A stretch of 64,000 nt of DNA from Minisyncoccota bacterium. GTDB lineage: Bacteria > Patescibacteriota > Minisyncoccia > Phycocordibacterales > SBAW01. The stretch covers positions 182,177 through 246,176 of the forward strand of contig DASZSF010000005.1 in NCBI GenBank assembly GCA_035548815.1, read 5' to 3'. A program made the translations under genes and the position numbers. The first letter of the stretch is position 1; each line of letters opens with the position of its first letter. Shown here piece by piece: positions 5,447 to 48,729 of this stretch. Under the pieces are notes generated by a model that worked only from the letters and a program-made list of their open reading frames with translations, was not told the origin of the DNA and did no database searches.

Positions 5447-6583
5447 ATGGAGCGTGAAGACGCGTATGCGGCCGCAGGTGTACATGTTGGTATCGAGGCC
5501 CAAGCGTCACGCATTATGTTTGAAGCGTCTAGGCAGACGTGGAAAAATAGAAAGGGTCTGATTGGAGATATCATCAACCCTTTTGCAGATTTCGCTGGAT
5601 TGCGAATGGTGTCAGTGGAGTCTCTCCCTCAGGGCAGTTATATGTCCGTCGGGTTTGATACTGCAGGGACGAAAGTTGAGATAGCCGAAAGAGTTGGCAA
5701 GCACGACACAATAGCGTTTGATCTGCTCGCCATGGTATGTGATGACGCTGTATTGCGCGGCGGAGAACCGGTGCTTGTGGGAACGAATCTTGATTTATCC
5801 TCCCTTGGCTCTGACGAAAGATACCTTCCAGTAATTCGAGAGCTTGCAACCGGATATGTTGCAGCAGCAAATGCAGCGGGGGTTGCAATAATTAATGGTG
5901 AGATTGCTCAAATGGGAAAACTCGTTTCTGGATGGGACAATTTTCCGTATCATTGGGGAGCTTCATGTGTTTGGTTTGGGAAAAAAGAAAATTTGTTTAC
6001 CGGTCGTGAAGTTGAAGTTGGAGATGCAGTTGTAATGCTCAAAGACAACGGTTTTCGGACAAACGGTCTGACGCTGGCGCGCACTATTTTTGCCAAAAAA
6101 TACGGTGAAGAATGGCATAAACAACTATTCGATGATAGTACGCTTGGTATGCACGTATTAACCCCATCGACTATTTATTCTTGTTTTGTCACGCATCTTA
6201 ATGGCACATTCGACAGGGAGGGAGTTTCGAAACTCCACGGCGTCGTGCATATTACCGGTGGTGGCATACCGGAGAAGTTGCAGCGCGTATTAAAGCCCAG
6301 TGGATTCGGCGCAAATCTTTCTAATCTTTTCAGTCCTGCCCATATTGTCACTCATTGTCAGGAAGTTGGTGAGGTGTCCGACAAGGATGCCTACGGCGCG
6401 TGGCATATGGGGCAGGGTATGGGTCTAATTACTCCTCAGCCGGACATAGTTCTCAAAGAAGCGCAGGCATTTGGGATAGAAGCTCGCGTAGCAGGACATA
6501 TAGTCTCCAAGCCAGGCATTCGGCTTGTAAGTAAGGGGGCTGCTTCACCAGGGGAAGATCTCGTGTATCATAGCGAAGCGTAA
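5447..6583 (+). CDS. purM: Phosphoribosylformylglycinamidine cyclo-ligase (AIR synthetase, PurM-like)
   Basis: DTAGTKVEIAERVGKHDTIAFDLLAMVCDDAVLRGGEPV matches the PurM core DGVGTKLKLA..HDTIGIDLVAMCVNDL. Start moved to ATG 5447 to avoid overlap with the upstream gene. Confidence 0.7.
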   Translation: MEREDAYAAAGVHVGIEAQASRIMFEASRQTWKNRKGLIGDIINPFADFAGLRMVSVESLPQGSYMSVGFDTAGTKVEIAERVGKHDTIAFDLLAMVCDDAVLRGGEPVLVGTNLDLSSLGSDERYLPVIRELATGYVAAANAAGVAIINGEIAQMGKLVSGWDNFPYHWGASCVWFGKKENLFTGREVEVGDAVVMLKDNGFRTNGLTLARTIFAKKYGEEWHKQLFDDSTLGMHVLTPSTIYSCFVTHLNGTFDREGVSKLHGVVHITGGGIPEKLQRVLKPSGFGANLSNLFSPAHIVTHCQEVGEVSDKDAYGAWHMGQGMGLITPQPDIVLKEAQAFGIEARVAGHIVSKPGIRLVSKGAASPGEDLVYHSEA

Positions 6584-6586
6584 GCC

Positions 6587-6658
6587 GCCCTTGTAGTTCA
6601 ATGGATAGAACAGCTCCGTCCTAAGGAGTAGATGTAGGTTCGATTCCTACCGAGGGCA
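6587..6658 (+). tRNA. tRNA-Arg (anticodon CCT)
   Basis: Acceptor GCCCTTG/CGAGGGC with one G.U pair, T-arm GTAGG-TTCGATT-CCTAC, anticodon loop GTCCTAA. Confidence 0.75.
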
Positions 6659-6683
6659 CAAAAACACTGATAATATTAATTGC

Positions 6684-6980
6684 ATGGATCTAGATGTTGA
6701 GGAGGTTCGCGAGCTGGTTAAAAAGAATTTAGAACTTACGGAAGAAAATCACCGGATATTGCGCGGGATGCGAAGTGCGGCACGATGGGGCAGGCTTATT
6801 ACAATAGTTTGGTGGATAGTTGTTGTGGCTGTGTCGGGTGCGACGTATTACTACTACGTCCAGCCTTACGTTGAACAGGCAAAACAAGTCTACGCAGACT
6901 TCGAAAAGAATGGCCAAAGCGCGAAGAATTTTGGGGCCGAATTTGCTCAATTTCTTGAGCAGTTTAAGAAGCCGCAGTAA
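6684..6980 (+). CDS. Hypothetical small membrane protein
   Basis: 98 aa with a charged N-terminus and a single TM (LITIVWWIVVVAVSGATYYYY). Sits between two tRNA genes. Confidence 0.4.
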   Translation: MDLDVEEVRELVKKNLELTEENHRILRGMRSAARWGRLITIVWWIVVVAVSGATYYYYVQPYVEQAKQVYADFEKNGQSAKNFGAEFAQFLEQFKKPQ

Positions 6981-6988
6981 ACCTCTGG

Positions 6989-7061
6989 TGCTTGGGGCCG
7001 GGATCGAACCGGCGACCCCCTCCTCTTCAGGGAGATGCTCTACCAACTGAGCTACCCAAGC
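6989..7061 (-). tRNA. tRNA-Phe (anticodon GAA)
   Basis: Reverse complement reads GCTTGGGTAGCTCAGTTGGTAGAGCATCTCCCTGAAGAGGAG...GGTTCGATCCCGGCCCCAAGCA, with anticodon loop CTGAAGA. The ORF-track call 6729..7046 is the tRNA. Confidence 0.85.
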
Positions 7062-7092
7062 GGTACTAGGATACTAGCAAAAAATTGAAGAT

Positions 7093-7134
7093 TTCACAAA
7101 AGGCGAGGGATGCCGAAGCAAAGCCGGCCTCGCC
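7093..7134 (-). terminator. Putative intrinsic terminator of the hsp20 gene
   Basis: GC hairpin GGCGAGG(N18)CCTCGCC, followed on the minus strand by TTTTGTG. Confidence 0.4.
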
Positions 7135-7172
7135 GCGCTAAGCGCGGTCGAGAGGCTTTGCGCAGGCTCTCG

Positions 7173-7670
7173 CTAGTTCGATTTAATCTTAAGTTTTGCT
7201 TGGCGGCCTTTGTCGAGCTTAGGGAGTTTTATCGTGAGAAGTCCGTGCTTTTCAGTAGCCTCTGCTTCTTCGATTTCAACTTCCTGTGGCAGCACAATAG
7301 TGCGGCTAAATGCGCCCCAATAGAGTTCCTGGAAGAAAAAGTCGCCCGCAGTGCCTTCAGTATGGCGCTCGCGTTTGCCGCGGAGCGTCACCATGTCGCG
7401 TGTTATTGAAACGTCCAAATCTTCAGGGCGGACGCCCGCTATCATGGCTTTGATGATGATGTGAGTCGGAGTTTGGTACACATCTACGGCAAGTTCTCCT
7501 TCCTGTTCCTCTTCTTCCTGCATCACAGGAATAGCTTTTGCAGGCATCTGCGCGCGTGCTGCAGGCGAGTAGCCTGAACCGCCGCTTTCGAGGTCTTCAA
7601 ATCCGTAGTCGCTGTCAGCAGATGTGCCGCCTGTGAGCCATTCAAAGAGTGATCGTTTTTCCTTTGCCAT
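7173..7670 (-). CDS. Hsp20/alpha-crystallin family small heat-shock protein
   Basis: Alpha-crystallin domain: VDVYQTPTHIIIKAMIAGVRPEDLDVSI...LLTIKLPK. Confidence 0.8.
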   Translation of the reverse strand: MAKEKRSLFEWLTGGTSADSDYGFEDLESGGSGYSPAARAQMPAKAIPVMQEEEEQEGELAVDVYQTPTHIIIKAMIAGVRPEDLDVSITRDMVTLRGKRERHTEGTAGDFFFQELYWGAFSRTIVLPQEVEIEEAEATEKHGLLTIKLPKLDKGRQAKLKIKSN

Positions 7671-7680
7671 AGTCTTATTG

Positions 7681-8385
7681 CTAACAGTAGTCCTTAGAGG
7701 GCTGTTTAATGCGCTCAGTCAGCAGCAAGGCTGCCACGGTGCCAAACCAAATGCATATAAACACCCAGAATGTCGAAGGCGACTTTCCTCCTTGAAGTAT
7801 AAAAAAATTGAACAGCGTGTGCAAGGAAATCGCAAGGATAAGTCCCGCTGCTGCAGCCATTTTTCGCGTTTTTGCGGGCGAAAAAAACGCAAATGCCAAG
7901 CATATGCCTATGGTCACTGATGCGAGCACGTGCAGAAGCGTTGCGCCCATGAATCGGAGGTCTTCTGTCACGAATGCGCGCAGTGTGTCATTGCTTGCGA
8001 CAGGTGCCCACAAAAAAGCTGCATTTTCGAGCGCCGAAAAGCCCAGCGCCGCAGTTGCCATGTATATAATCGCGTCGAGCGGCTCGTCGTAGACGGCAAA
8101 GCGGAGCGCCGCAAGGTACGCTGCGCCGAATTTAAGCACTTCTTCAACAGATGCCCACATTAAGAAGATCAGGAGCTGGTTGGTAGTGAATTGGGCAAAA
8201 AAACGCTCCAGTGGGTAGGCGATGATGACCGCGACCATGCCGCACAAAAACGTATAGAAGATGAAGCGCTTAGGTTCAGGGTGGCAGCGGTCTTCAAGCA
8301 GCCAGAAAAAGAGCCAGACAAACGCCGGCACGACGCCACCTAAAAACGCTGTCAAAAGGACAGGAGGACTCAAAAGCGTATCCAC
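7681..8385 (-). CDS. PrsW-family intramembrane protease-like membrane protein
   Basis: Polytopic protein with an EExxK-like motif (SVEEVLKFGAAY) and FSALENAAF, reminiscent of PrsW. Annotated start is GTG. Confidence 0.4.
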   Translation of the reverse strand: MDTLLSPPVLLTAFLGGVVPAFVWLFFWLLEDRCHPEPKRFIFYTFLCGMVAVIIAYPLERFFAQFTTNQLLIFLMWASVEEVLKFGAAYLAALRFAVYDEPLDAIIYMATAALGFSALENAAFLWAPVASNDTLRAFVTEDLRFMGATLLHVLASVTIGICLAFAFFSPAKTRKMAAAAGLILAISLHTLFNFFILQGGKSPSTFWVFICIWFGTVAALLLTERIKQPSKDYC

Positions 8386-30107: not shown

Positions 30108-31412
30108 ATGAAAATGACCAACTTCCAACTTATTTTTACGGGAGCCTTCGTCTTTTTTATTGTGTGCGGCCTTGTCGCATTTTCTCTCTACACCACTAAA
30201 AGCAACAACATCGGCAATGTGGTCGTGTGGGGCACGCTTGACGGCGGCACGATGTCGAAGCTTATCAATGACCTTAGCCAACAGGACAAGTCGTATCAGA
30301 GCGTCACGTATGTCGAACGCCCAGCCGCTACATTTGTCAGCGACGTTATAAACGCAATGGCCAGTGGCACAGGGCCTGACCTTGTGCTCATAAGCCAAGA
30401 CCAGCTCAACGCCTTTTCTAACAAGCTTTCTGTCATTCCATACAGCGCGGTATCGCAGTCAACCTACGTCTCTTCCTACATTGCAGAAAGCCAGCTCTTC
30501 TTGACTGCTGATGGCGCCTTCGCATTGCCATTTGTTATAAATCCTATGGTCTTGTATTGGAATCGCAATCTCGTGTCTTCGGCAGGATTGGGGCAGCCGC
30601 CAAAATATTGGGACGACTTGCTTACAACCGCGCAGAAGCTTACGGTCTTAGATGCAAACAACAATGTCAAAAAGAGTGCCATAGCGATGGGCTCGTGGGA
30701 CAATGTTGCGTATGCAAAGCAAATAGTGGCAGCGCTCTTTATGCAGGCGGGGGACAGTATTACACAATACGACCAGACGGGTGCACTTAGGTCCGTATTT
30801 GGCCAAACACCACAGGGGGCTCCCGAAAATCCAGCATCGTCAGCGTTGCAGTTTTATACCGAGTTCGCCAACCCATCAAAAGTTACCTATTCGTGGAATC
30901 GCTCACTGCCCAAATCAACCGACGCATTTACAGCAGGGGATGCGGCTCTCTATGTTGGGTTTGCAAGCGACTATCCGGATCTTTTGTCGCGAAACCCTAA
31001 CTTAAATATCGGGGTAGCGCTCCTGCCCCAGATCCAGGGCAATAGTACCGCCCTTACGTTCGGGCAGCTTACCGGCATTGCCATTCCGCGCACGGCGTTT
31101 AACCCAACTGGTGCGCTTACTATAGCAGAGAAACTTTCGGGCGCGACAGCCGTTGGTGCAGCTGCGGCAGCGTTCGGGTTTCCACCTGTACGCCTTGATG
31201 TGCCGACAGACACGTCAGCCAATGCGGCACAGGCCGTCTTTTACCAGTCATCGCTTATTGCACGCGGCTGGATCGACCCCGACTATGCCGCGAGCGATGC
31301 TATATTTAGGACGATGGTGGATGCGGTGGTCAGCAACAAGTCATTGCCTGACACGGCGGTGCAAGATGCCGCGCAGTCTCTCCAGGCGCTCATATCACAC
31401 ACAGGACAATGA
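30108..31412 (+). CDS. Membrane-anchored extracellular solute-binding-protein-like protein (SBP_bac_1-like)
   Basis: N-terminal TM anchor, then a sugar-type SBP pattern: VVVWGTLDGG, PDLVLISQDQL, PFVINPMVLYWNRNLVSSAGL..PPKYWDDLLTTAQKL. Stop overlaps the next ATG by 4 nt. Confidence 0.55.
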   Translation: MKMTNFQLIFTGAFVFFIVCGLVAFSLYTTKSNNIGNVVVWGTLDGGTMSKLINDLSQQDKSYQSVTYVERPAATFVSDVINAMASGTGPDLVLISQDQLNAFSNKLSVIPYSAVSQSTYVSSYIAESQLFLTADGAFALPFVINPMVLYWNRNLVSSAGLGQPPKYWDDLLTTAQKLTVLDANNNVKKSAIAMGSWDNVAYAKQIVAALFMQAGDSITQYDQTGALRSVFGQTPQGAPENPASSALQFYTEFANPSKVTYSWNRSLPKSTDAFTAGDAALYVGFASDYPDLLSRNPNLNIGVALLPQIQGNSTALTFGQLTGIAIPRTAFNPTGALTIAEKLSGATAVGAAAAAFGFPPVRLDVPTDTSANAAQAVFYQSSLIARGWIDPDYAASDAIFRTMVDAVVSNKSLPDTAVQDAAQSLQALISHTGQ

Positions 31413-31792
31413 AAACACTAGGCTATATCTCAACCACTGTGACCTTGATGTGCATGCCGCTTATCGCAGAGGCAGCTGGTGGCGGTGTGGGATTCCAAAA
31501 TCCTCTCAATGCCAGCACCATTTGCGGGGCGCTGAAGATATTTTTGGATGGACTCATGGCCCTTGCCGTTCCTGTGGCGGTAGTATTTTTGGTCTACGCG
31601 GGCTTTTTATTTGTATGGGCACGTGGAAATCAAGAAGCGCTGACAAAGGCAAAGAAGAATCTTTTTTACACGGTACTGGGTATTGCGATCTTTATGGGCG
31701 CGTGGCTTTTAGGACAAGTTGTGGCAAACACCTTTAACAGCCTGGCGAGCGGTGCAGGACAGCCAAATTCCCAGATAGGGCAATGTCAATAA
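31409..31792 (+). CDS. TrbC/VirB2-like pilin-family small membrane protein (paralog 1)
   Basis: Signal peptide, two TM helices flanking a basic loop (VYAGFLFVWARGNQEA...GIAIFMGAWLLGQVV), and an AGGA RBS. Confidence 0.45.
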   Translation: MKTLGYISTTVTLMCMPLIAEAAGGGVGFQNPLNASTICGALKIFLDGLMALAVPVAVVFLVYAGFLFVWARGNQEALTKAKKNLFYTVLGIAIFMGAWLLGQVVANTFNSLASGAGQPNSQIGQCQ

Positions 31793-31793
31793 T

Positions 31794-32099
31794 ATGAATA
31801 CACTTTTAAGCGCAGGTGATACATTTAAAGATGTCATTTCCCGCCTCATAGGGCTAATGAACCTGCTCATCTGGCCGCTCATAGGGTTTGCGATTCTTTT
31901 CTTCTTTTATGCGCTTGTCCGCTTCGTTTTCAAAGGCGGAGATTCGAAAGCTCGGATACAAGGCCGTCAGGCAATCTTATGGAGCTTAATAGCACTATTC
32001 GTTCTCTTTTCACTCTGGGGACTTGTGAGATTGCTCCAGACAGCCGTGTTTGTTGGCACTCCGGCACAAGAGCTCCAGAGGGGCACACAGCCGCTATAA
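31794..32099 (+). CDS. TrbC/VirB2-like pilin-family small membrane protein (paralog 2)
   Basis: Same 2-TM architecture (LIGFAILFFFYALVRFVFKGGDSKAR...LFSLWGLVRLL). Starts 1 nt after the previous stop. Confidence 0.45.
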   Translation: MNTLLSAGDTFKDVISRLIGLMNLLIWPLIGFAILFFFYALVRFVFKGGDSKARIQGRQAILWSLIALFVLFSLWGLVRLLQTAVFVGTPAQELQRGTQPL

Positions 32100-32164
32100 T
32101 CTATCCACACGAGGGTCTTGTGCGGGTGAGTGCGCTTGTTACACTATAAGTATATTAATTTAGA

Positions 32165-32527
32165 ATGAGTATGAAGAAGATTACTTCGATAGGCCTCCTT
32201 TTCCTTGCAGTTGCGCCGTTTATTGCGTCAGCACAATTATCAAACGTCCGAACTCTCATTGGCGCAGTCGGGAGCATCATCAACATGCTCATCCCGCTTT
32301 TGGTGGGAGTAGCGATTCTCGCGTTCTTCTGGGGTCTTATTAAATATATAAGTGGGGGAAAGGGAATGAAGGCAGGGCGTAACACCATGATCGCCGGTAT
32401 TGTTTCGTTCTTCATCATGGTATCGCTCTACGGCATTGTAAACTTCGCAGGTTCAGCACTTGGTATCAACCAAAACGGCCAGGGTAATGCTGTTCGCCCG
32501 AATGCGCCATCTATCCCGACCCAGTAG
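32165..32527 (+). CDS. TrbC/VirB2-like pilin-family small membrane protein (paralog 3)
   Basis: Signal peptide plus two TM helices with a GGKGMKAGR loop. Confidence 0.45.
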   Translation: MSMKKITSIGLLFLAVAPFIASAQLSNVRTLIGAVGSIINMLIPLLVGVAILAFFWGLIKYISGGKGMKAGRNTMIAGIVSFFIMVSLYGIVNFAGSALGINQNGQGNAVRPNAPSIPTQ

Positions 32528-32533
32528 TCAATC

Positions 32534-32788
32534 TTGAAAACTCTCGTCAATCTTTTCTCGAATATAATCATAAACCCACTCCTGGCATTACTGTTTGGAG
32601 TGGGTTTGTTGGTGTTTGTGTTCGGTGTTGCAGAATTTTTGTTTGAGTTTGATGTACGTGGCAACCAGACTGCACGAGAGGAGGGCAAAAAACATATGCT
32701 CTGGGGTGTTATAGGCATGTTTATCATGGCCTCAGCCTATAGCATCATTGAAGTTATCGCCTCAACGCTGGGAGCCAAACTTCCGTAA
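32534..32788 (+). CDS. TrbC/VirB2-like pilin-family small membrane protein (paralog 4)
   Basis: 84 aa with two TM helices and a DVRGNQTAREEGKK loop. Confidence 0.4.
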   Translation: MKTLVNLFSNIIINPLLALLFGVGLLVFVFGVAEFLFEFDVRGNQTAREEGKKHMLWGVIGMFIMASAYSIIEVIASTLGAKLP

Positions 32789-34933: not shown

Positions 34934-35800
34934 TTAAAAAAGCCTGCCTTTTTGGAATCGCCATACTATTGGCGGGTAGGTAATGTAGCGTTCCACAAAG
35001 TGGGATTTAAATGTAGAGAATCCTTTCCATTCACGCGGTTCGCCTGGTTGCCAAAAATACATGAAGACAAGATTTTTAATGCCGCGTTTTAGCGAGTCTT
35101 TAAACCAATAGTCAACGAGCCCTGTCATTGCTTCTGTGCTGCGTGCCTCTTCGTATATAAACGTGCACATACGGGTGGTGCTATTGTACGTCGGGGAGGT
35201 AATGATAGCGTTTCCTGCAACTATAGCGTTTGTTTCATTATTTTCCACAACAAAAAATTCTATATGCGGCCGCACTTCTGGTAATGCATACTGGCGTCCA
35301 AGCGTGGCAAGAAGGTAGACGCCGACGTGCTTGTAGGTACGGCTCTTTTTGTACGCCGCTTTGTACTCTTCGAATGACACATGTTTTATGGAATGCGTCC
35401 GCCCCAGATGTTTGTCCCACTTTTTTGCATTGCGTTGCGCGTCTTTGCTCCACCTAAGGCGGTAATTCGAGTCTGTGAGTTCAACCAAACCATCTTTCCG
35501 CCACGACTGTGGGCGCCATATACTGTGCCAATGCGGCGGGACGTCCGTGCGGCGCACGCGTTTCCACATTATTATTCTGTTATAGGCGAGCGCTCCAGAA
35601 TGAGCATGGGAAAGATCAGGTTCAGCATCGCCACTAAAGAGTTCAAAACATATAGGCCATAAACACCAACGGGTGCTCGTTGGTGTACGTTCGCGCCGGC
35701 ATATCGGCGGAGGCAGGGCTATCATGCCAAATTCAGGCCATAGTTCAGGCGGGGCGAACCACTCCGGCGCTGTCGTATCGTGCTCCTCTTCTGTCCCCAT
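34934..35800 (-). CDS. Fem/BioF2-like GNAT-fold acyltransferase family protein (paralog B)
   Basis: 288 aa with C-terminal ...WKGFSTFKSHFVE resembling the FemABX GxxxFKxxFG tail. Its ATG overlaps the upstream paralog stop (TAATG). Confidence 0.35.
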   Translation of the reverse strand: MGTEEEHDTTAPEWFAPPELWPEFGMIALPPPICRRERTPTSTRWCLWPICFELFSGDAEPDLSHAHSGALAYNRIIMWKRVRRTDVPPHWHSIWRPQSWRKDGLVELTDSNYRLRWSKDAQRNAKKWDKHLGRTHSIKHVSFEEYKAAYKKSRTYKHVGVYLLATLGRQYALPEVRPHIEFFVVENNETNAIVAGNAIITSPTYNSTTRMCTFIYEEARSTEAMTGLVDYWFKDSLKRGIKNLVFMYFWQPGEPREWKGFSTFKSHFVERYITYPPIVWRFQKGRLF

Positions 35801-36645
35801 TATTTTCTTAGTATAGTGCCGCGCAAAAATTTGAACAAAGGAGGTTGGTAGAGCAGGTAGTCTGTGACGAATTGCGCTTTGAAATGTGAGATGCCTTTTC
35901 CGCGTTTGGTGCCGCTCTCATGCGGCGGGACGAATGCTCCGAAATGGAGCACTTCAACATGGCGGGAAAGGGCGTCAGCGAACCAATGGTCAATGAGCCC
36001 GAGCATGACATTGTCCATGCGCTCTTCTTTGAGATAAAAACCGCAGCTGTATGCGCTTGCGCGTCCTTTGCAGCCATCAAACACGGCATGGCCTCCCACT
36101 ATGACGCCGTCGCGTATGCGCTCTGCTCCCCACATCTGTACAGAATCAGGGAATCGCTCAAGGCGAGCTTGTAATTTTTTGAGCTCGTATGTCGGTATCT
36201 CAGAGGCGACGGTGCTTTTGCTATATGCCCGAGCGAACTCATCAAATGAAAGGGAGATTACTCTATATTTTTTATCGAGCAATTCGTCGCGCCACTTTTT
36301 TCGATAGTAGCGAGCAGTTTTTGACCAGCGGGTGAAATAACCGGGCGCGAGCTTGTGATAGCCGATATATATGGACGAGCGTAGCCAGGGTAGCTGCAAC
36401 CATCCGCGCGGCACATCCATGCGCGTTCTCCGATGCCAAACGGCGATGCGGTTTGGACCAGGCGGCGTGTCATGAAGAAGGGGTTCGGTGTTGCTCCGAT
36501 ACTCTTCAAAATATATGGGCCATATGCCATATCGCGCACCGACGGGTGATGCGCCAACAGGCTCTGGTTTTGTAGTGTCTCTAAAGAGTCGGTAGAACAG
36601 ATATTCGGGCCATTCAAAAAGAGAGAGCAGGCGACTATCTTCCAT
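35800..36645 (-). CDS. Fem/BioF2-like GNAT-fold acyltransferase family protein (paralog A)
   Basis: Paralog of 34934..35800 with C-terminal ...GKGISHFKAQFVT. Start abuts the 3' end of tRNA-Leu(TAA). Confidence 0.35.
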   Translation of the reverse strand: MEDSRLLSLFEWPEYLFYRLFRDTTKPEPVGASPVGARYGIWPIYFEEYRSNTEPLLHDTPPGPNRIAVWHRRTRMDVPRGWLQLPWLRSSIYIGYHKLAPGYFTRWSKTARYYRKKWRDELLDKKYRVISLSFDEFARAYSKSTVASEIPTYELKKLQARLERFPDSVQMWGAERIRDGVIVGGHAVFDGCKGRASAYSCGFYLKEERMDNVMLGLIDHWFADALSRHVEVLHFGAFVPPHESGTKRGKGISHFKAQFVTDYLLYQPPLFKFLRGTILRK

Positions 36646-36730
36646 GGTGCCGGGGGTGGGAATCGAACCCACACGACCTTGCGGTCTGGGGATTTTAAGT
36701 CCCCTATGTCTACCATTTCATCACCCCGGC
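36645..36730 (-). tRNA. tRNA-Leu (anticodon TAA), CCA encoded
   Basis: Reverse complement reads GCCGGGGTGATGAAATGGTAGACATAGGGGACTTAAAATCCCC + long variable arm + GTGGG-TTCGATT-CCCAC CCCCGGC A CCA. Confidence 0.85.
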
Positions 36731-44804: not shown

Positions 44805-44915
44805 TTATGCGAGGCTGTCAACGTAGTTGCACAGGTCGACGATGACCTGATCGATGCTGAGAATGAACGCAGCATAGTTGCAGAGGTCGTCGACGATCTG
44901 GTCGATGGTGGTCAT
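44805..44915 (-). CDS. Small Cys-containing peptide (36 aa) with internal tandem repeat, GC3-rich
   Basis: MTTIDQIVDDLCNYAAFILSIDQVIVDLCNYVDSLA. AAGGAG RBS 7-8 nt upstream and a TTGACA-17-TATTAT promoter. About 85% GC3. Confidence 0.45.
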   Translation of the reverse strand: MTTIDQIVDDLCNYAAFILSIDQVIVDLCNYVDSLA

Positions 44916-44972
44916 GGTGTGTCTCCTTGCAGGGGCCTTGGGATCGATTCCCGCAGCTGTCTTTCGTATGTA

Positions 44973-45001: not shown

Positions 45002-45083
45002 GTACCCCAAAAAAGCCCAAAAATAAGGCAAAAACAGTCGACAAAAACCCCGAAACGATGTATTTTATACATGTTCGATATAT

Positions 45084-45169
45084 GCGTCGGTGGTAGAGTG
45101 GTCAATTACACTTGGCTGTAAACCAAGCGCCTCACGGCTACGTAGGTTCGAATCCTACCCGGCGCACCA
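45084..45169 (+). tRNA. tRNA-Tyr (anticodon GTA), CCA encoded
   Basis: GCGTCGGTGGTAGAGTGGTCAATTACACTTGGCTGTAAACCAAG + long variable arm + GTAGG-TTCGAAT-CCTAC CCGGCGC A CCA. Confidence 0.8.
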
Positions 45170-45195
45170 AACAACAGTGCTACAATTATTGTGTA

Positions 45196-46137
45196 ATGAA
45201 AGTGTTTAAGAGCCCGCTCTTTTGGTTTGGCGTATTTTTTCTGACACCTGCGGCAGTTGTGTTCGGGGCTGATGCGCTGACGCCCTGCGGTACGCTCGCG
45301 TTTACGGGGTCGTATGGCCCTGGGTACTTTCTCTCGGCGACCAGCTGTAACTTTTGCTATTTAGCCAAGCTCATCCAAAATATCGTGAATTTTTTGCTGA
45401 TGGTCGCCATCCCGATTTCCGTGGCGATGTTTGCTTGGGCAGGCGTTATGTACTTTACGGCAGGGGGGAATCCGGCGCGGGCTGAACGTGGGCGCAAGAT
45501 TTTTGCTGCAGTATTGTTGGGCTTCTGCATCGCGCTTGGTGCCTGGCTGTTCGTGCAGGTGTTTCTCCAAACGGTAACGAATCCTAATTTCTTCAGCGCA
45601 AACAACTGGATAAATCTTGATTGCAGTACCTTCAATGATCAGCGTTCCCGCAATGTGTCCATCAGCACGGTGCTTTCTGGAAACGGACTTGCGCCTTCGA
45701 CTGTGACAAGCGACCCAACGAGTCCGACTCTAGCGCCACCGCCTGACAGTGGTGAAATTCAGGCAGCTATTTCACAAGCAACAAGTCGTTATATTGGCAC
45801 AGTAACCACTGCCGGTCCAGGTGGGGGAAATTTAGCATGCGCATGGGCGGTAAATAATATTCTCGGCAGCGCAGGCATTTCATCAATTGATGGCGATAGT
45901 GTGCCGGACATGGAGACAGTGCTCAAATCTGGAAGAGGGCAGCCCGTTGACCAGTCGCAAGGCCAGCCGGGTGATATCGTTATACAGGGGAACCAATGGC
46001 ATGTCGGAATTTGCCAAGATGTTGGGTGCACCCGAGTTATATCAAACTCCTCTGGCGCGCGCAGTTTTACGAACGACCAAACGATGTCTGCGTTTTCAAG
46101 AGGTGCGCAAAGCCGTGTATACCGTGTAGTAAATTAA
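45196..46137 (+). CDS. Pilin-like (TrbC/VirB2-type) N-terminal module fused to CHAP/NlpC-P60-like putative cell-wall hydrolase domain
   Basis: The N-terminus has a signal peptide, four Cys and two TM helices (IQNIVNFLLMVAIPISVAMFAWAG...GAWLFVQVF), homologous to the 31.4-kb paralogs. A Ser/Thr/Pro linker follows. The C-terminus has the Cys...His pair GNLACAWAVNNIL...PGDIVIQGNQWHVGI typical of CHAP. Confidence 0.45.
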   Translation: MKVFKSPLFWFGVFFLTPAAVVFGADALTPCGTLAFTGSYGPGYFLSATSCNFCYLAKLIQNIVNFLLMVAIPISVAMFAWAGVMYFTAGGNPARAERGRKIFAAVLLGFCIALGAWLFVQVFLQTVTNPNFFSANNWINLDCSTFNDQRSRNVSISTVLSGNGLAPSTVTSDPTSPTLAPPPDSGEIQAAISQATSRYIGTVTTAGPGGGNLACAWAVNNILGSAGISSIDGDSVPDMETVLKSGRGQPVDQSQGQPGDIVIQGNQWHVGICQDVGCTRVISNSSGARSFTNDQTMSAFSRGAQSRVYRVVN

Positions 46138-46138
46138 T

Positions 46139-46552
46139 ATGAAACGCTCTACAGCAACCCTCATAGTTATAGCAGTCCTCGGCGGTCTGCTTGCGTGCGT
46201 TATATATTCTGGGAAAGTCACTCACCTTCTTCGACAGAATACTTTTTTTGCTGCAGTTGGGACGGCGCAATCAGTAAAAACAGTCGCAGGTGTTAAGGCT
46301 GCTGTGCAGGCTCATGTACCGGCAGGTATTTCAATGATATTTGGAGCAACCAGCATGGAAGATATATATGCGCTTCAAGTGTGGGGCGCTGACGACATGG
46401 GGGGAGAAGCGCTTTTGATGTACGACAGCACAAACAATGAGTGGAATTTCGTGTCGTGGGGCGGCGGAGCCTGGAGCGCAGAAGGCCTCACGCGGTCAGA
46501 AGGAGTGCCACAAGACACAGCAGAGGCGCTGCTCGGCGGGCTGCCCAACTAA
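46139..46552 (+). CDS. Hypothetical small membrane protein between the two pilin-fusion genes
   Basis: 137 aa with an N-terminal TM and a Trp/Gly-rich soluble part. ATG lies 1 nt after the upstream stop. Confidence 0.4.
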   Translation: MKRSTATLIVIAVLGGLLACVIYSGKVTHLLRQNTFFAAVGTAQSVKTVAGVKAAVQAHVPAGISMIFGATSMEDIYALQVWGADDMGGEALLMYDSTNNEWNFVSWGGGAWSAEGLTRSEGVPQDTAEALLGGLPN

Positions 46553-46555
46553 TGT

Positions 46556-47632
46556 ATGAAGCGACTCATTCCATCGCGCACAACGCTCATCTCCGCCGGA
46601 GTATTCTTCTTTGGCGTGCCGCTCTATGTGTGGGCGGCGCAAACTGGGCTGGTTCCATGCGGCACTGCCAGCTTTACCGGTTTGTATGATTCTAATTACT
46701 ATTTGCAGGCAACCAATTGCAATCTGTGCTACTTTGCACAGCTGATTCAAAATATCGTCAACTTTTTGCTCATGGTCACCATTCCGATTTCGGTGGCGAT
46801 GTTTGCTTGGGCAGGCTTCAAATATCTTACAGCGGGCGGGGATGTAAAGAGAATAAGCCGCGCACATAATATTTTTTCTTCCGTATTTATCGGTTTTTGC
46901 ATCGCGCTCGGTGCATGGCTGTTTGTGCAGGTTGTTTTGCAAGCAGTCACAAGCAGCAACTATTTGCCCAGCAGCTTTTTTAACTTGAGCTCCTGCAGCC
47001 AGCAAAATGACATACGCCGGCGTGATGAAGCGCTAAGTACTGTATTGAGCGGGAATGGCCTTGCACCAACTGTTACAGGAGCGCCCTCAAGTGGTGGCGG
47101 AGTATTCTGTCCGAGCGGGTATGAGCTTTACCTTGGTTCTTGTTACAACCCTACGACGAACGATATTGTTAGCGCAACGATCGGTTCTTCTGCTGCGAGC
47201 ACAAGAGGTCGTGTCGTAATTACTAACCCGGATGGCACGCAGACCGAGATGATCGACGGCTCACCTTCGTGGCGAAGAAACAATCCGGGAAATATGATAG
47301 CAGGGGCTGGCCAGTACCAGCCGATAGGAATGGATGGAGGATTCGCAGTCTTTGCGAGCTACGAGGACGGGTTCAACGCAATGCTCGCAAACCTTAAAAG
47401 CCCTCTATACCAAAATGGCAACATGACGATAGCAGCTGCTCTCTATAGATGGGCGCCACCCATTCCAGGGTCAGGAAATGACCCTGTTAAATATGCAGCG
47501 TTCGTACAAAGCACAACAGGAATCCCTTCAAGCACAGTAATAAATAACCTCACCCAGGAACAGCTTGTTGCAGTGGCAACAGCGATGCGCACACAAGAAG
47601 GTTGGAGTGTTGGGAGGACAATTTCCCGCTAA
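46556..47632 (+). CDS. Pilin-like N-terminal module fused to a different, unassigned C-terminal domain
   Basis: The N-terminal ~150 aa are paralogous to 45196..46137, with ~88% DNA identity over 46748-46817 vs 45376-45445 and a shared STVLSGNGLAP junction. The C-terminus is unrelated (WRRNNPGNMIAG...GFAVFASYEDGFNAML...YRWAPP). Confidence 0.45.
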   Translation: MKRLIPSRTTLISAGVFFFGVPLYVWAAQTGLVPCGTASFTGLYDSNYYLQATNCNLCYFAQLIQNIVNFLLMVTIPISVAMFAWAGFKYLTAGGDVKRISRAHNIFSSVFIGFCIALGAWLFVQVVLQAVTSSNYLPSSFFNLSSCSQQNDIRRRDEALSTVLSGNGLAPTVTGAPSSGGGVFCPSGYELYLGSCYNPTTNDIVSATIGSSAASTRGRVVITNPDGTQTEMIDGSPSWRRNNPGNMIAGAGQYQPIGMDGGFAVFASYEDGFNAMLANLKSPLYQNGNMTIAAALYRWAPPIPGSGNDPVKYAAFVQSTTGIPSSTVINNLTQEQLVAVATAMRTQEGWSVGRTISR

Positions 47633-47642
47633 TTCGTTACGT

Positions 47643-48236
47643 TTATTTCTTGGTCTTTACGGTCAGCGTGCCCTGCGTAAGAAGTGTTCGCACATCGCGA
47701 GCAATGTTTTCATCCGTCTGTGGATAGTAGATTGTGTCGAAATATATGCCGACGGTGTAGGTGCCGTCTGGCAATGAGTTTGCGACTTTACTAGAGAATG
47801 TGCCGTAGCTTAATTGGCCTTGAGACAATCCAGACAACATGACACTGCCGCCGTGGTCGCTGCGGTCGCTCCACACCACGTTAGGTATAGAAGCACTAAG
47901 CGCTGTGGTTAGCGGAAGGTCGCCTGTTGCGACGACCACTTCAAGGCCGTATGCATTTGTATATGTGCCGGTTATTGTTGGTTTGGACGACGTAGCATTA
48001 AGTGAGTTCTGATCTATGTTTGCAGTGGCTGTGATTTGAACATCAGTGTTTGTTTGCGTCCCTGAGGGTACTGACGAAGTAACATTATTGGGCTCGTTTT
48101 GAGAGGTCGGTGGGGTATTTGAAGGAGTGTTTGACCCCTGTGTTTTTTGCCAAAAATAGTAGGCCAGCCCGGCAATAACCACTACGCCAACTGCCCCAAA
48201 AATGATGAAAGGCCATGGTGACTTTTGTTCCGGCAT
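47643..48236 (-). CDS. Hypothetical membrane-anchored Ser/Thr-rich surface protein
   Basis: TM anchor, an S/T/N/P-rich low-complexity linker and a C-terminal beta-rich domain. ATG at 48236 preferred over the upstream TTG. Confidence 0.45.
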   Translation of the reverse strand: MPEQKSPWPFIIFGAVGVVVIAGLAYYFWQKTQGSNTPSNTPPTSQNEPNNVTSSVPSGTQTNTDVQITATANIDQNSLNATSSKPTITGTYTNAYGLEVVVATGDLPLTTALSASIPNVVWSDRSDHGGSVMLSGLSQGQLSYGTFSSKVANSLPDGTYTVGIYFDTIYYPQTDENIARDVRTLLTQGTLTVKTKK

Positions 48237-48310
48237 CTTGGTTTGTATGTTACCATGCCTTTTAATCGGGCCTTTTGACGGGCTCCACAAGCTCTGCTAT
48301 AGTGCTCTGC

Positions 48311-48546: not shown

Positions 48547-48617
48547 GGGCGCTTAGTTTAGTGGTAGAACAACGGTCTCCAAAACCGTTAGTGGGGGTTC
48601 GATTCCCTCAGCGCCCG
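48547..48617 (+). tRNA. tRNA-Trp (anticodon CCA)
   Basis: GGGCGCTTAGTTTAGTGGTAGAACAACGGTCTCCAAAACCGTTAGTGGGGGTTCGATTCCCTCAGCGCCCG. Confidence 0.85.
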
Positions 48618-48729
48618 CCTAAAGCAAAAAGTATCGGAGGTATGCTGACGCATCTCTTGGGTATTTGACAGTATATAGAGAATATGTCACTGTTAAGTTC
48701 GAACTTAGCACACAGACAGGGAGAGTAAG

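Follow-up and report, generated by a model that had tools for sequence, protein, structure and literature searches.

Tandem pilin-like fusion proteins with predicted peptidoglycan hydrolase domains and a linked partner gene at a conserved Patescibacterial locus

A 64,000-nucleotide stretch from a Minisyncoccota bacterium (Patescibacteriota; GenBank assembly GCA_035548815.1, contig DASZSF010000005.1, positions 182,177 to 246,176 of the forward strand), referred to below as the window, carries three tightly packed open reading frames (ORFs) on the + strand, here named ORF A, ORF B and ORF C. ORFs A and C begin with a common pilin-like module and end in different enzymatic domains, and the small membrane protein gene ORF B lies between them. 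Sequence comparisons and structure models show A and C to be two predicted peptidoglycan hydrolases, exported, anchored by a membrane hairpin and differing in bond specificity; the partner B is coupled to the peptidase, and the locus is conserved. With a probability of roughly one half, A and C together would form a VirB1-type wall opener of a Patescibacterial type IV secretion system (T4SS) or pilus, in which B restrains the endopeptidase.

Results

The shared pilin-like module of A and C

By aligning A with C in BLASTP, the extent of the shared N-terminal module could be defined. The alignment shows 58% identity over 173 aa (E 1e-61) and stops just past the common motif STVLSGNGLAP; beyond this motif, nothing significant aligns. 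The module measures ~175 aa, and its similarity between A and C is far beyond chance, in agreement with an earlier sequence-based note on this DNA, which had described a shared N-terminal module followed by complete divergence. At the DNA level, the identity between 45376-45445 and 46748-46817 is 63/70, that is 90% and not about 88% as first counted, and it is 75.6% over 213 nt. Both modules exceed the gathering cutoff of the Pfam family T4SS_pilin (PF18895, 26.6 bits), with 35.7 bits for A and 34.4 bits for C. The TrbC family itself (PF04956) stays below its cutoff of 27.9, with 22 bits for A and 20 bits for C; the TrbC/VirB2-like nature proposed for the module is borne out by the PF18895 matches.

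In the Kyte-Doolittle plot of A, the hydrophobic segments are 6-29, 53-88 and 100-128, and those of C are 10-28, 60-89 and 105-133. In each protein, they correspond to a signal-like segment and two transmembrane (TM) helices, and the helices are joined by the basic loop AGG[ND]..R..R, as had been read from the sequence before. The cysteines of A that are conserved in the family are Cys31 (in PCG), Cys51 and Cys54 (in CxxC) and Cys143 (after the second helix, TM2), so that the contiguous four-cysteine segment of the first description does not hold. In an alignment of 149 relatives of the module, P18, C30, C50, C53, W137, C142 and R151 are nearly invariant. Judged by this alignment, the pattern PCG...CxxC before TM1 together with one Cys after TM2 defines a subfamily to which the modules of A and C belong. 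Since the cysteines before TM1 and after TM2 would both face the outside, we infer that their stapling by disulfides is plausible.

The same genome also encodes four small pilin paralogues that stand alone and are arranged in an array (Table 1). Three of the four ORFs exceed the PF18895 cutoff, and therefore their assignment to the family of A and C holds. The third ORF of the array (32165-32527) has no Pfam match despite its same-looking layout, and the first paralogue has a single Cys ahead of TM1 and another at its C-terminus. The array adjoins a gene for a solute-binding protein (30108-31412).

The junction behind TM2 bears on one possible fate of the fusion proteins, in which the C-terminal enzyme would be cut off at the Cys/Arg-rich junction as the pilin matures, so that the mature pilin would be left and the hydrolase would be secreted in free form. 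The junction C-x(n)-R-x-R ... STVLSGNGLAP is conserved, and W137, C142 and R151 lie among the nearly invariant residues. C-terminal processing of TrbC (as in RP4) and of VirB2 pilins, as well as the release of VirB1*, is established. No protease or cyclase gene is present at the locus, however, and this purely conjectural pro-pilin scheme is highly improbable.

The C-terminal domain of A resembles NlpC/P60 peptidases

When the C-terminus of A alone was used in a word-indexed homologue search, six homologues were found, among which one has a precomputed PF00877 match (P0003) and one is another pilin fusion (P0001). In the homologue alignment, Cys215 is invariant within GGNLACAWAVNNI, and PGDIVI is invariant as well. 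His269, which follows PGDIVI, is kept in every homologue covering that region, and the Cys/His pair suspected earlier is thus conserved. Asn284 lies in the motif N-[SA]-S, 15 residues after the His, and is found in 6/6 homologues covering the region (P0005 stops earlier). In the alignment with CwlO, the triad His of the target aligns to a Ser.

The profile built from the A homologues matches the NlpC/P60 endopeptidase CwlO at 1.4e-5 and also matches MepS, Acd24020 and others. The AlphaFold model of the domain (predicted local distance difference test, pLDDT, 80.4) adopts a papain-like alpha+beta fold; its top 14 Foldseek matches are all NlpC/P60, and its closest structural neighbours are the autolysins CwlO, LytE and MepS. 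In the family databases, A gives an NCBIfam RipC match of only 14 bits, the homologue P0004 reaches 22.3 bits against the PF00877 cutoff of 23, and relatives give CHAP and NlpC/P60 scores below threshold. Taken together, the C-terminus of A is predicted to be a divergent NlpC/P60-type Cys/His peptidase. The CHAP/NlpC-P60 assignment of the earlier note stands at the superfamily level, as NlpC/P60. CHAP proper was considered and rejected, as there is no CHAP family match and the closest fold neighbours are not CHAP.

The C-terminal domain of C resembles the Enc34 endolysin

The C-terminus of C alone retrieved only itself in the word-indexed homologue search. With phmmer, the domain matches the N-terminus of Gp29 (PDB 9vvp chain L, a 1295-aa phage protein) at 6e-9, and it also matches phrog_873 'endolysin' at 6.7e-16 plus a tape-measure PHROG. 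A search seeded with the Gp29 fragment returned 918 relatives, mostly of 130-220 aa and labelled 'structural protein' or 'Protein P5'. [quoted passage not shown] The AlphaFold (AF2) model of the domain has a pLDDT of 86.7 and an all-helical fold resembling the lysozyme alpha-lobe, and its sole significant Foldseek match is again 7q47 (E 5.9e-5, probability 1.0, TM-score 0.56).

In the PHA02564 family, muralytic activity has been demonstrated only for Enc34 ORF39; its domain adopts a fold that resembles the lysozyme alpha-lobe and is related to GH73 and GH23, and its key residues are the catalytic Glu131 with Trp79 and Tyr95 (PMC8943055). All three are kept in C, as Glu348 (the invariant E150 of A4), Trp299 (in RWAPP) and Tyr313 (the invariant Y115). 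The family motif RNNNPGN is present in C as RRNNPGN, and in the family motif NEND the conserved Glu is replaced (PGSGND). Based on these results, the second C-terminus, previously left unassigned, is predicted to be a PHA02564/Enc34-type lysozyme-like domain with glycosidase activity. Because of this assignment, A and C can be regarded as one predicted peptidase and one predicted glycosidase.

The PHA02564 domain forms the N-terminus of Gp29 in 9vvp and also occurs in PHROGs above 600 aa that are annotated as tape-measure or 'endolysin'; therefore it is used in virion-associated proteins besides the Enc34-type endolysins. The latter often contain a two-helix TM domain, and the PHA02564 domain is active on Gram-negative sacculi (PMC8943055).

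ORF B is linked to the NlpC/P60 fusion

ORF B encodes a protein with one N-terminal TM segment, identified by hydropathy, and a lipobox-like LLAC. In the family alignment, the TM anchor is followed by a Pro/Thr/Ser linker and a domain of ~65 aa with the pattern YALQxW..GGEALL.YD...W.VV..GGGAW...L...GVP..TA. Following the positive-inside rule, this C-terminal domain is predicted to face outward, on the same side as enzyme A. For B, no Pfam match, no PHROG of note and no PDB relative was obtained, even with a 15-sequence profile, and the NCBIfam match 'copper uptake system-associated protein' (24.6 bits) lies below its cutoff of 50. By these comparisons, B would found a previously undescribed family.

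The linkage of B with the peptidase was apparent on a short contig carrying the P0001 fusion (L007; L and P numbers denote related loci and proteins, respectively). Here, the next gene encodes a 146-aa homologue of B with 50% identity over the C-terminal 64 residues (E 7e-15), and the gene after it opens with a further pilin module. Scanning metagenomes with the NlpC/P60 alignment yielded 54 loci, and in 22 of them a B homologue lies directly downstream of the NlpC/P60 gene. Counted with our own profiles on the ORFs of the loci, and for genes with at least 450 nt of downstream sequence, B follows the pilin-fused NlpC/P60 gene in 12/14 loci besides the window, with gaps of -4 to +12 nt, and follows NlpC/P60 genes that have no detectable pilin module in 4/23. 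No partner gene lies immediately downstream of the PHA02564, SLT or LAS-like fusions, and the ORF B alignment, when used as the query of a metagenome scan, retrieved nothing. The anticipated co-variation of the 137-aa protein with the NlpC/P60 fusion was thus observed. By genetic linkage, B is the probable cognate partner of this fusion and a candidate inhibitor, immunity protein or accessory factor.

Two variants of the arrangement were seen. In L010, a B homologue of 233 aa (578-1279) contains two copies of the conserved B domain. In L020 (2144-4402), L021 (2111-4426), L025 (1802-4030) and L028 (1972-4224), proteins of 740-770 aa end in the same NlpC/P60 subfamily and are followed by a B homologue; no pilin module was detectable in these four proteins, and that of L020 has no Pfam match. 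In at least some other architectures as well, therefore, a B homologue comes after the enzyme domain.

A conserved chromosomal slot with exchanged enzymes

The window is a housekeeping stretch, and its nearest relatives are Candidatus Adlerbacteria and other Patescibacteria metagenome-assembled genomes. In L003 and L004, clpB is followed in turn by tRNA-Tyr, two pilin fusions in tandem, tRNA-Trp and a PIF1-like helicase. L001, L002 and L005 show the same downstream half of this slot, and tRNA-Trp follows the fusion pair in all five loci (L001-L005). The window shares clpB, tRNA-Tyr, tRNA-Trp, the PIF1 helicase and miaA, and in the more distant L012, L015, L018 and L019, a pilin-NlpC/P60 gene with B again lies between clpB and miaA. 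The tRNA-Tyr that separates clpB from the first fusion gene has the + orientation in the window (45084-45169) and the - orientation in L003 (4720-4803) and L004 (5835-5918), and this difference suggests a local inversion.

The term 'tRNA-adjacent cassette' in the earlier note implied mobility, which is not supported: the slot is conserved in many relatives, the GC content is unremarkable, and no integrase and no convincing attachment-site (att) repeat was found at the A-B-C locus. When flanking repeats and tRNA remnants were sought, the only match was an 18-nt direct repeat (16/18) that resembles a tRNA T-arm and 3'-end, at 44940-44957 and, inside tRNA-Trp, at 48595-48612. Neither ARAGORN nor Rfam called a tRNA at 44940-44957, which may be a tRNA remnant or a chance match. 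Conserved synteny is preferred over a mobile tRNA cassette.

Within the slot, the enzymes differ among relatives. The second gene encodes an SLT domain above the PF01464 cutoff in L001, L002 and L003. The first gene of the relatives contains H-x6-D and HxH motifs with a weak likeness to LAS/hedgehog-type zinc peptidases; the matches of these domains to hedgehog N-domains and VanY have E values of about 1, and their assignment to LAS/M15 is probable. Pairs of an LAS-like domain with an SLT or SLT-like domain were found in L002, L003 and L004; the second L004 gene has no Pfam match and matched only our own SLT-like profile, which contained that gene. In L010, NlpC/P60 and B are accompanied by pilin-SLT_3, and in L012, pilin-SLT_3 (sub-threshold in Pfam) occurs with pilin-NlpC/P60 plus B. 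A predicted peptidase is therefore paired with a predicted glycosidase repeatedly, in L002, L003, L004, L010 and L012.

The N-modules of a tandem pair are 65% identical in the window, 84% in L002, 75% in L003 and 98% in L004, and these values are above the identity between genomes. The greater likeness of the modules within than between genomes suggests gene conversion between the two copies of a tandem pair, together with C-terminal displacement. In L004, the genes at 5959-6984 and 6997-8073 have N-modules that are 98% identical over ~150 aa and then switch abruptly to different enzymes; this pair is evidence of recent gene conversion or duplication. Overall, the slot is one in which catalytic domains have been displaced (NlpC/P60 versus LAS-like; PHA02564 versus SLT or SLT_3) and the tandem N-modules are homogenised in each genome.

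The stable position of the slot bears on whether A and C are housekeeping autolysins, for which the hairpin would be a mere anchor. The enzymes would then remodel the producer's own wall for growth and division, B would act as an IseA-like regulator, and no link to a T4SS would exist. Many genomes share the position between clpB and miaA, with no T4SS neighbours seen, and the structural neighbours of A named above are growth autolysins, one of which, LytE, has the proteinaceous inhibitor IseA. Furthermore, MurJ is also encoded within the 64-kb window, and the organism therefore makes peptidoglycan. On the other hand, the anchor scores above the T4SS_pilin cutoff and shares its family with the stand-alone pilin array of this genome, the predicted glycosidase is a phage-type endolysin domain, and it is unusual for essential autolysins to give way to non-homologous domains among close relatives. 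A role as autolysins is distinctly unlikely in this light.

The exchange of enzymes raises the alternative that A and C are lytic effectors directed at a host cell. The pilin-like module would polymerise into or cap a T4SS pilus, the hydrolases would digest the host wall at the site of contact, and B would confer immunity. The conserved N-module with sharply bounded, non-homologous C-termini fits this view, as do the at least four enzyme classes found in one orthologous slot of close relatives and the partner gene lying immediately downstream of the NlpC/P60 gene, with its product facing the same membrane side. The PHA02564 domain is phage-derived and its family is active on Gram-negative sacculi (PMC8943055), and in Saccharibacteria epibiotic growth cannot proceed without the T4SS and pilin arrays (PMC10633639; PMC12857230). 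However, a partner gene accompanies the NlpC/P60 enzyme alone, with none at the PHA02564, SLT and LAS-like fusions, and two TM helices would by default keep the enzyme on the producer. Neither orphan C-terminal cassettes nor T4SS genes were found at the locus, the synteny with housekeeping genes is stable, and pilus assembly is not known to tolerate a C-terminal domain of 150-200 aa. Host-directed lysis by A and C is somewhat unlikely on this evidence. A broader form of the idea is a polymorphic effector system built on a VirB2-type pilin, in which swappable hydrolase 'warheads' (NlpC/P60, PHA02564, SLT, SLT_3, LAS-like and CHAP) would breach the host wall at the attachment site and the ORF B family would shield the producer; we consider such a system unlikely, although, if true, it would give the essential, functionally unexplained T4SS/pilin arrays a concrete job.

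Pilin-hydrolase fusions are widespread

When 1.84 billion cluster representatives were scanned in HMMER, the module retrieved 10,805 relatives at E<=1e-3 and 1,707 at E<=1e-10, and among the best 150 all but four are at least 270 aa long. Pfam matches among the top 113 comprise T4SS_pilin in 106, SLT in 28, SLT_3 in 10, CHAP in 4 and Transglycosylas in 2, with NlpC/P60, Lysozyme_like, PG_binding_1 and Peptidase_S8 in one each. Our own profiles add ~12 A-type NlpC/P60, ~27 LAS-like and 2 PHA02564 fusions (P0236 and P0268). From these counts it follows that the architecture of a pilin module plus a wall hydrolase is common and already implicit in Pfam, where SLT_3 (PF18896) matches many pilin fusions. 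The expectation that the same N-module would be found elsewhere with other C-termini was thus confirmed, with SLT, SLT_3, CHAP, LAS-like and other domains among the closest relatives. No description of pilin-hydrolase fusions was found in the recent Patescibacterial T4SS survey, the transposon sequencing (Tn-seq) paper or two reviews (PMC12102498, PMC10633639 and PMC12857230 among them).

In many relatives (L015, L018, L019, L037 and L013), an extension of ~200 aa precedes the pilin module, which then lies at about residues 200-330 of proteins of 540-630 aa. The extension gave no Pfam match.

Features of the locus

The coordinates of the features are collected in Table 1. ORFs A and B are separated by 1 nt, as noted before, and the B-C gap is 3 nt, where 4 nt had been given. 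The tRNA-Tyr gene ends 26 nt before ORF A, and a promoter-like site lies at 45038-45066.

Table 1. Positions of the fusion genes, their domains and neighbouring features in the window
Feature	Position	Strand	Content or basis
tRNA-Tyr (gta)	45084..45169	+	ARAGORN; Rfam tRNA 60.6 bits; upstream edge of conserved slot
ORF A, 313 aa	45196..46137	+	Signal peptide, pilin-like module, Pro/Ser/Thr linker, predicted NlpC/P60 peptidase; ORF list, Pfam, homologue alignment
Pilin module of A	45283..45696	+	PCG, CxxC, TM1, basic loop, TM2, Cys143, STVLSGNGLAP; BLASTP A vs C, hydropathy
PF18895 match in A	45367-45564	+	Pfam
Predicted NlpC/P60-type cysteine peptidase domain of A	45763..46134	+	Putative triad Cys215, His269, Asn284
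Putative triad codons of A	Cys215 45838-45840; His269 46000-46002; Asn284 46045-46047	+	
ORF B, 137 aa	46139..46552	+	N-terminal TM anchor (lipobox-like LLAC), conserved ~65-aa C-terminal domain; hydropathy, family alignment
ORF C, 358 aa	46556..47632	+	Signal peptide, pilin-like module, Cys-containing beta-rich spacer, predicted PHA02564 lysozyme-like domain
Pilin module of C	46655..47068	+	BLASTP A vs C, Pfam, hydropathy
PF18895 match in C	46739-46936	+	Pfam
Predicted PHA02564/Enc34-type muralytic domain of C	47252..47629	+	Profile, PDB and Foldseek matches
Signature codons of C	Trp299 47450-47452; Tyr313 47492-47494; putative catalytic Glu348 47597-47599	+	Residue roles from PMC8943055
tRNA-Trp (cca)	48547..48619	+	Downstream edge of conserved slot
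Four small stand-alone pilin paralogues	31409..32788	+	PF18895 family; without enzyme domains, without CxxC

Several neighbouring ORFs deserve mention. Upstream of tRNA-Tyr, a 36-codon ORF, MTTIDQIVDDLCNYAAFILSIDQVIVDLCNYVDSLA, is located on the - strand (44805-44915) and contains the internal repeat IDQ[IV][IV]DDLCNY. A sigma-70-like promoter (11/12; 45001-44973) precedes it, AAGGAGA serves as a Shine-Dalgarno sequence, and a terminator-like hairpin (44757-44745) follows. At this site, the public annotation has an 86-aa ORF on the + strand instead, and the 36-aa ORF has no relative among the fetched loci. Convergent with ORF C, a 215-aa ORF on the - strand (47643-48290) combines a single TM helix with a stretch rich in Ser, Thr, Asn and Pro and a beta-rich C-terminus. 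Pfam gives no match for it, the echoes in PHROG ('Zot-like') and NCBIfam (surface protein) are weak, and the fetched loci contain no relative; L002-L004 lack the ORF at this position. Further upstream, the adjacent - strand ORFs at 34934-35800 and 35800-36672 (288 and 290 aa) look paralogous by eye and adjoin tRNA-Leu and tRNA-Cys; the former has no Pfam match.

Discussion

Proposed function

The wall-opener function, to which we give about even odds, may proceed as follows. The Sec machinery would insert the hairpin with both ends outside, and disulfides would staple its N- and C-proximal segments. A would then cleave stem peptides as a DL-endopeptidase, C would cleave glycan strands, and the outside domain of B would bind A and restrain it near the producer's own wall. 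The pilin module would direct A and C to the T4SS or pilus machinery, where the pair would open the peptidoglycan locally for the passage of the apparatus, doing the job of the bifunctional glycosidase-plus-peptidase hydrolases PrgK, TraG (pIP501), CwlT and TcpG. A 2025 survey reported that most Patescibacteria with VirB2-like pilins have no recognisable VirB1 (PMC12102498), and the pilin-hydrolase fusions could fill the missing-VirB1 gap.

Several observations weigh against this function. The large ORFs of the 64-kb window and of the examined related loci include no virB4, virB6 or virD4, and the neighbours of the slot are clpB, miaA, the PIF1 helicase and tRNAs. This absence of T4SS core genes at the examined loci is the main weakness both of the wall-opener function and of the host-effector alternative. 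A itself has no PF00877 or PF05257 match in Pfam at E<=1. PF18895 proteins are not known to form a pilus, and a two-helix anchor would suit any surface enzyme, as is often the case in Enc34-type endolysins. In addition, a dedicated partner gene together with rapid domain replacement typifies effector-immunity pairs more than it does assembly hydrolases.

Cultivated Patescibacteria cannot live epibiotically without the T4SS and its pilin arrays, whose function has been called completely unknown (PMC11665869). The present results show that predicted wall-cutting domains often sit on the pilin-like module itself, and that a domain scan would label such proteins 'VirB2'. The missing VirB1 function and an activity that breaches the host wall are candidate roles of the fusions, and they supply putative catalytic residues as well as a new partner family (B), which is a candidate inhibitor or immunity factor. 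The locus also illustrates clearly how non-homologous domains displace one another at a fixed position in the chromosome, where the combination of peptidase plus glycosidase is preserved while the individual domains change.

Comparison with known systems

The pairing of an NlpC/P60 DL-endopeptidase with a proteinaceous regulator outside the membrane, as proposed for A and B, is known for LytE/CwlO and IseA in Bacillus subtilis. Unlike IseA, B is anchored in the membrane, and a comparison by sequence detected no similarity of B to IseA or to solved structures. The conserved N-module, the sharp junction and the downstream partner gene recall polymorphic toxins and effector-immunity systems (Tae/Tai of the type VI secretion system; displacement in contact-dependent inhibition, CDI, and in Rhs), and the NlpC/P60 fold predicted for A is common to Tse1 and Tae3. 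The present locus differs from these in that only one enzyme class has a partner, orphan cassettes are absent, the carrier is an integral-membrane pilin module and any target cell is hypothetical.

Similarly, C shares its predicted catalytic domain and the Trp/Tyr/Glu signature with the Enc34 ORF39-type endolysins (7q47) and with Gp29 of 9vvp, and these phage enzymes are often tethered by two helices as well. In contrast to them, C is a cellular, Patescibacterial gene, its TM hairpin is N-terminal and pilin-like, not C-terminal, and the Glu of NEND is replaced. The pilin-like modules belong to the same family as the described Patescibacterial PF18895/VirB2-like pilin arrays (Wang et al. 2023; Quinonero-Coronel et al. 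2025), and tandem paralogues are found in both. Those arrays consist of small stand-alone pilins, often near virB4, whereas A and C are 313-358 aa long and possess a CxxC-bearing extension and enzymatic C-termini.

Finally, the VirB1-like hydrolases of monoderm conjugation systems, PrgK (pCF10), TraG (pIP501), CwlT (ICEBs1), TcpG (pCW3) and the Tn916 Orf14-type proteins, are likewise membrane-anchored and extracytoplasmic, and combine a glycan-cutting domain with an NlpC/P60 or CHAP peptidase. In the present locus, by contrast, the two predicted activities reside on two polypeptides, and the likeness is functional only. The anchor is a VirB2-like pilin and not a plain TM helix, the glycosidase is probably of the PHA02564 type and not SLT, GH73 or GH25, the genes lie outside a T4SS cluster, and the peptidase is accompanied by its own dedicated partner, B.

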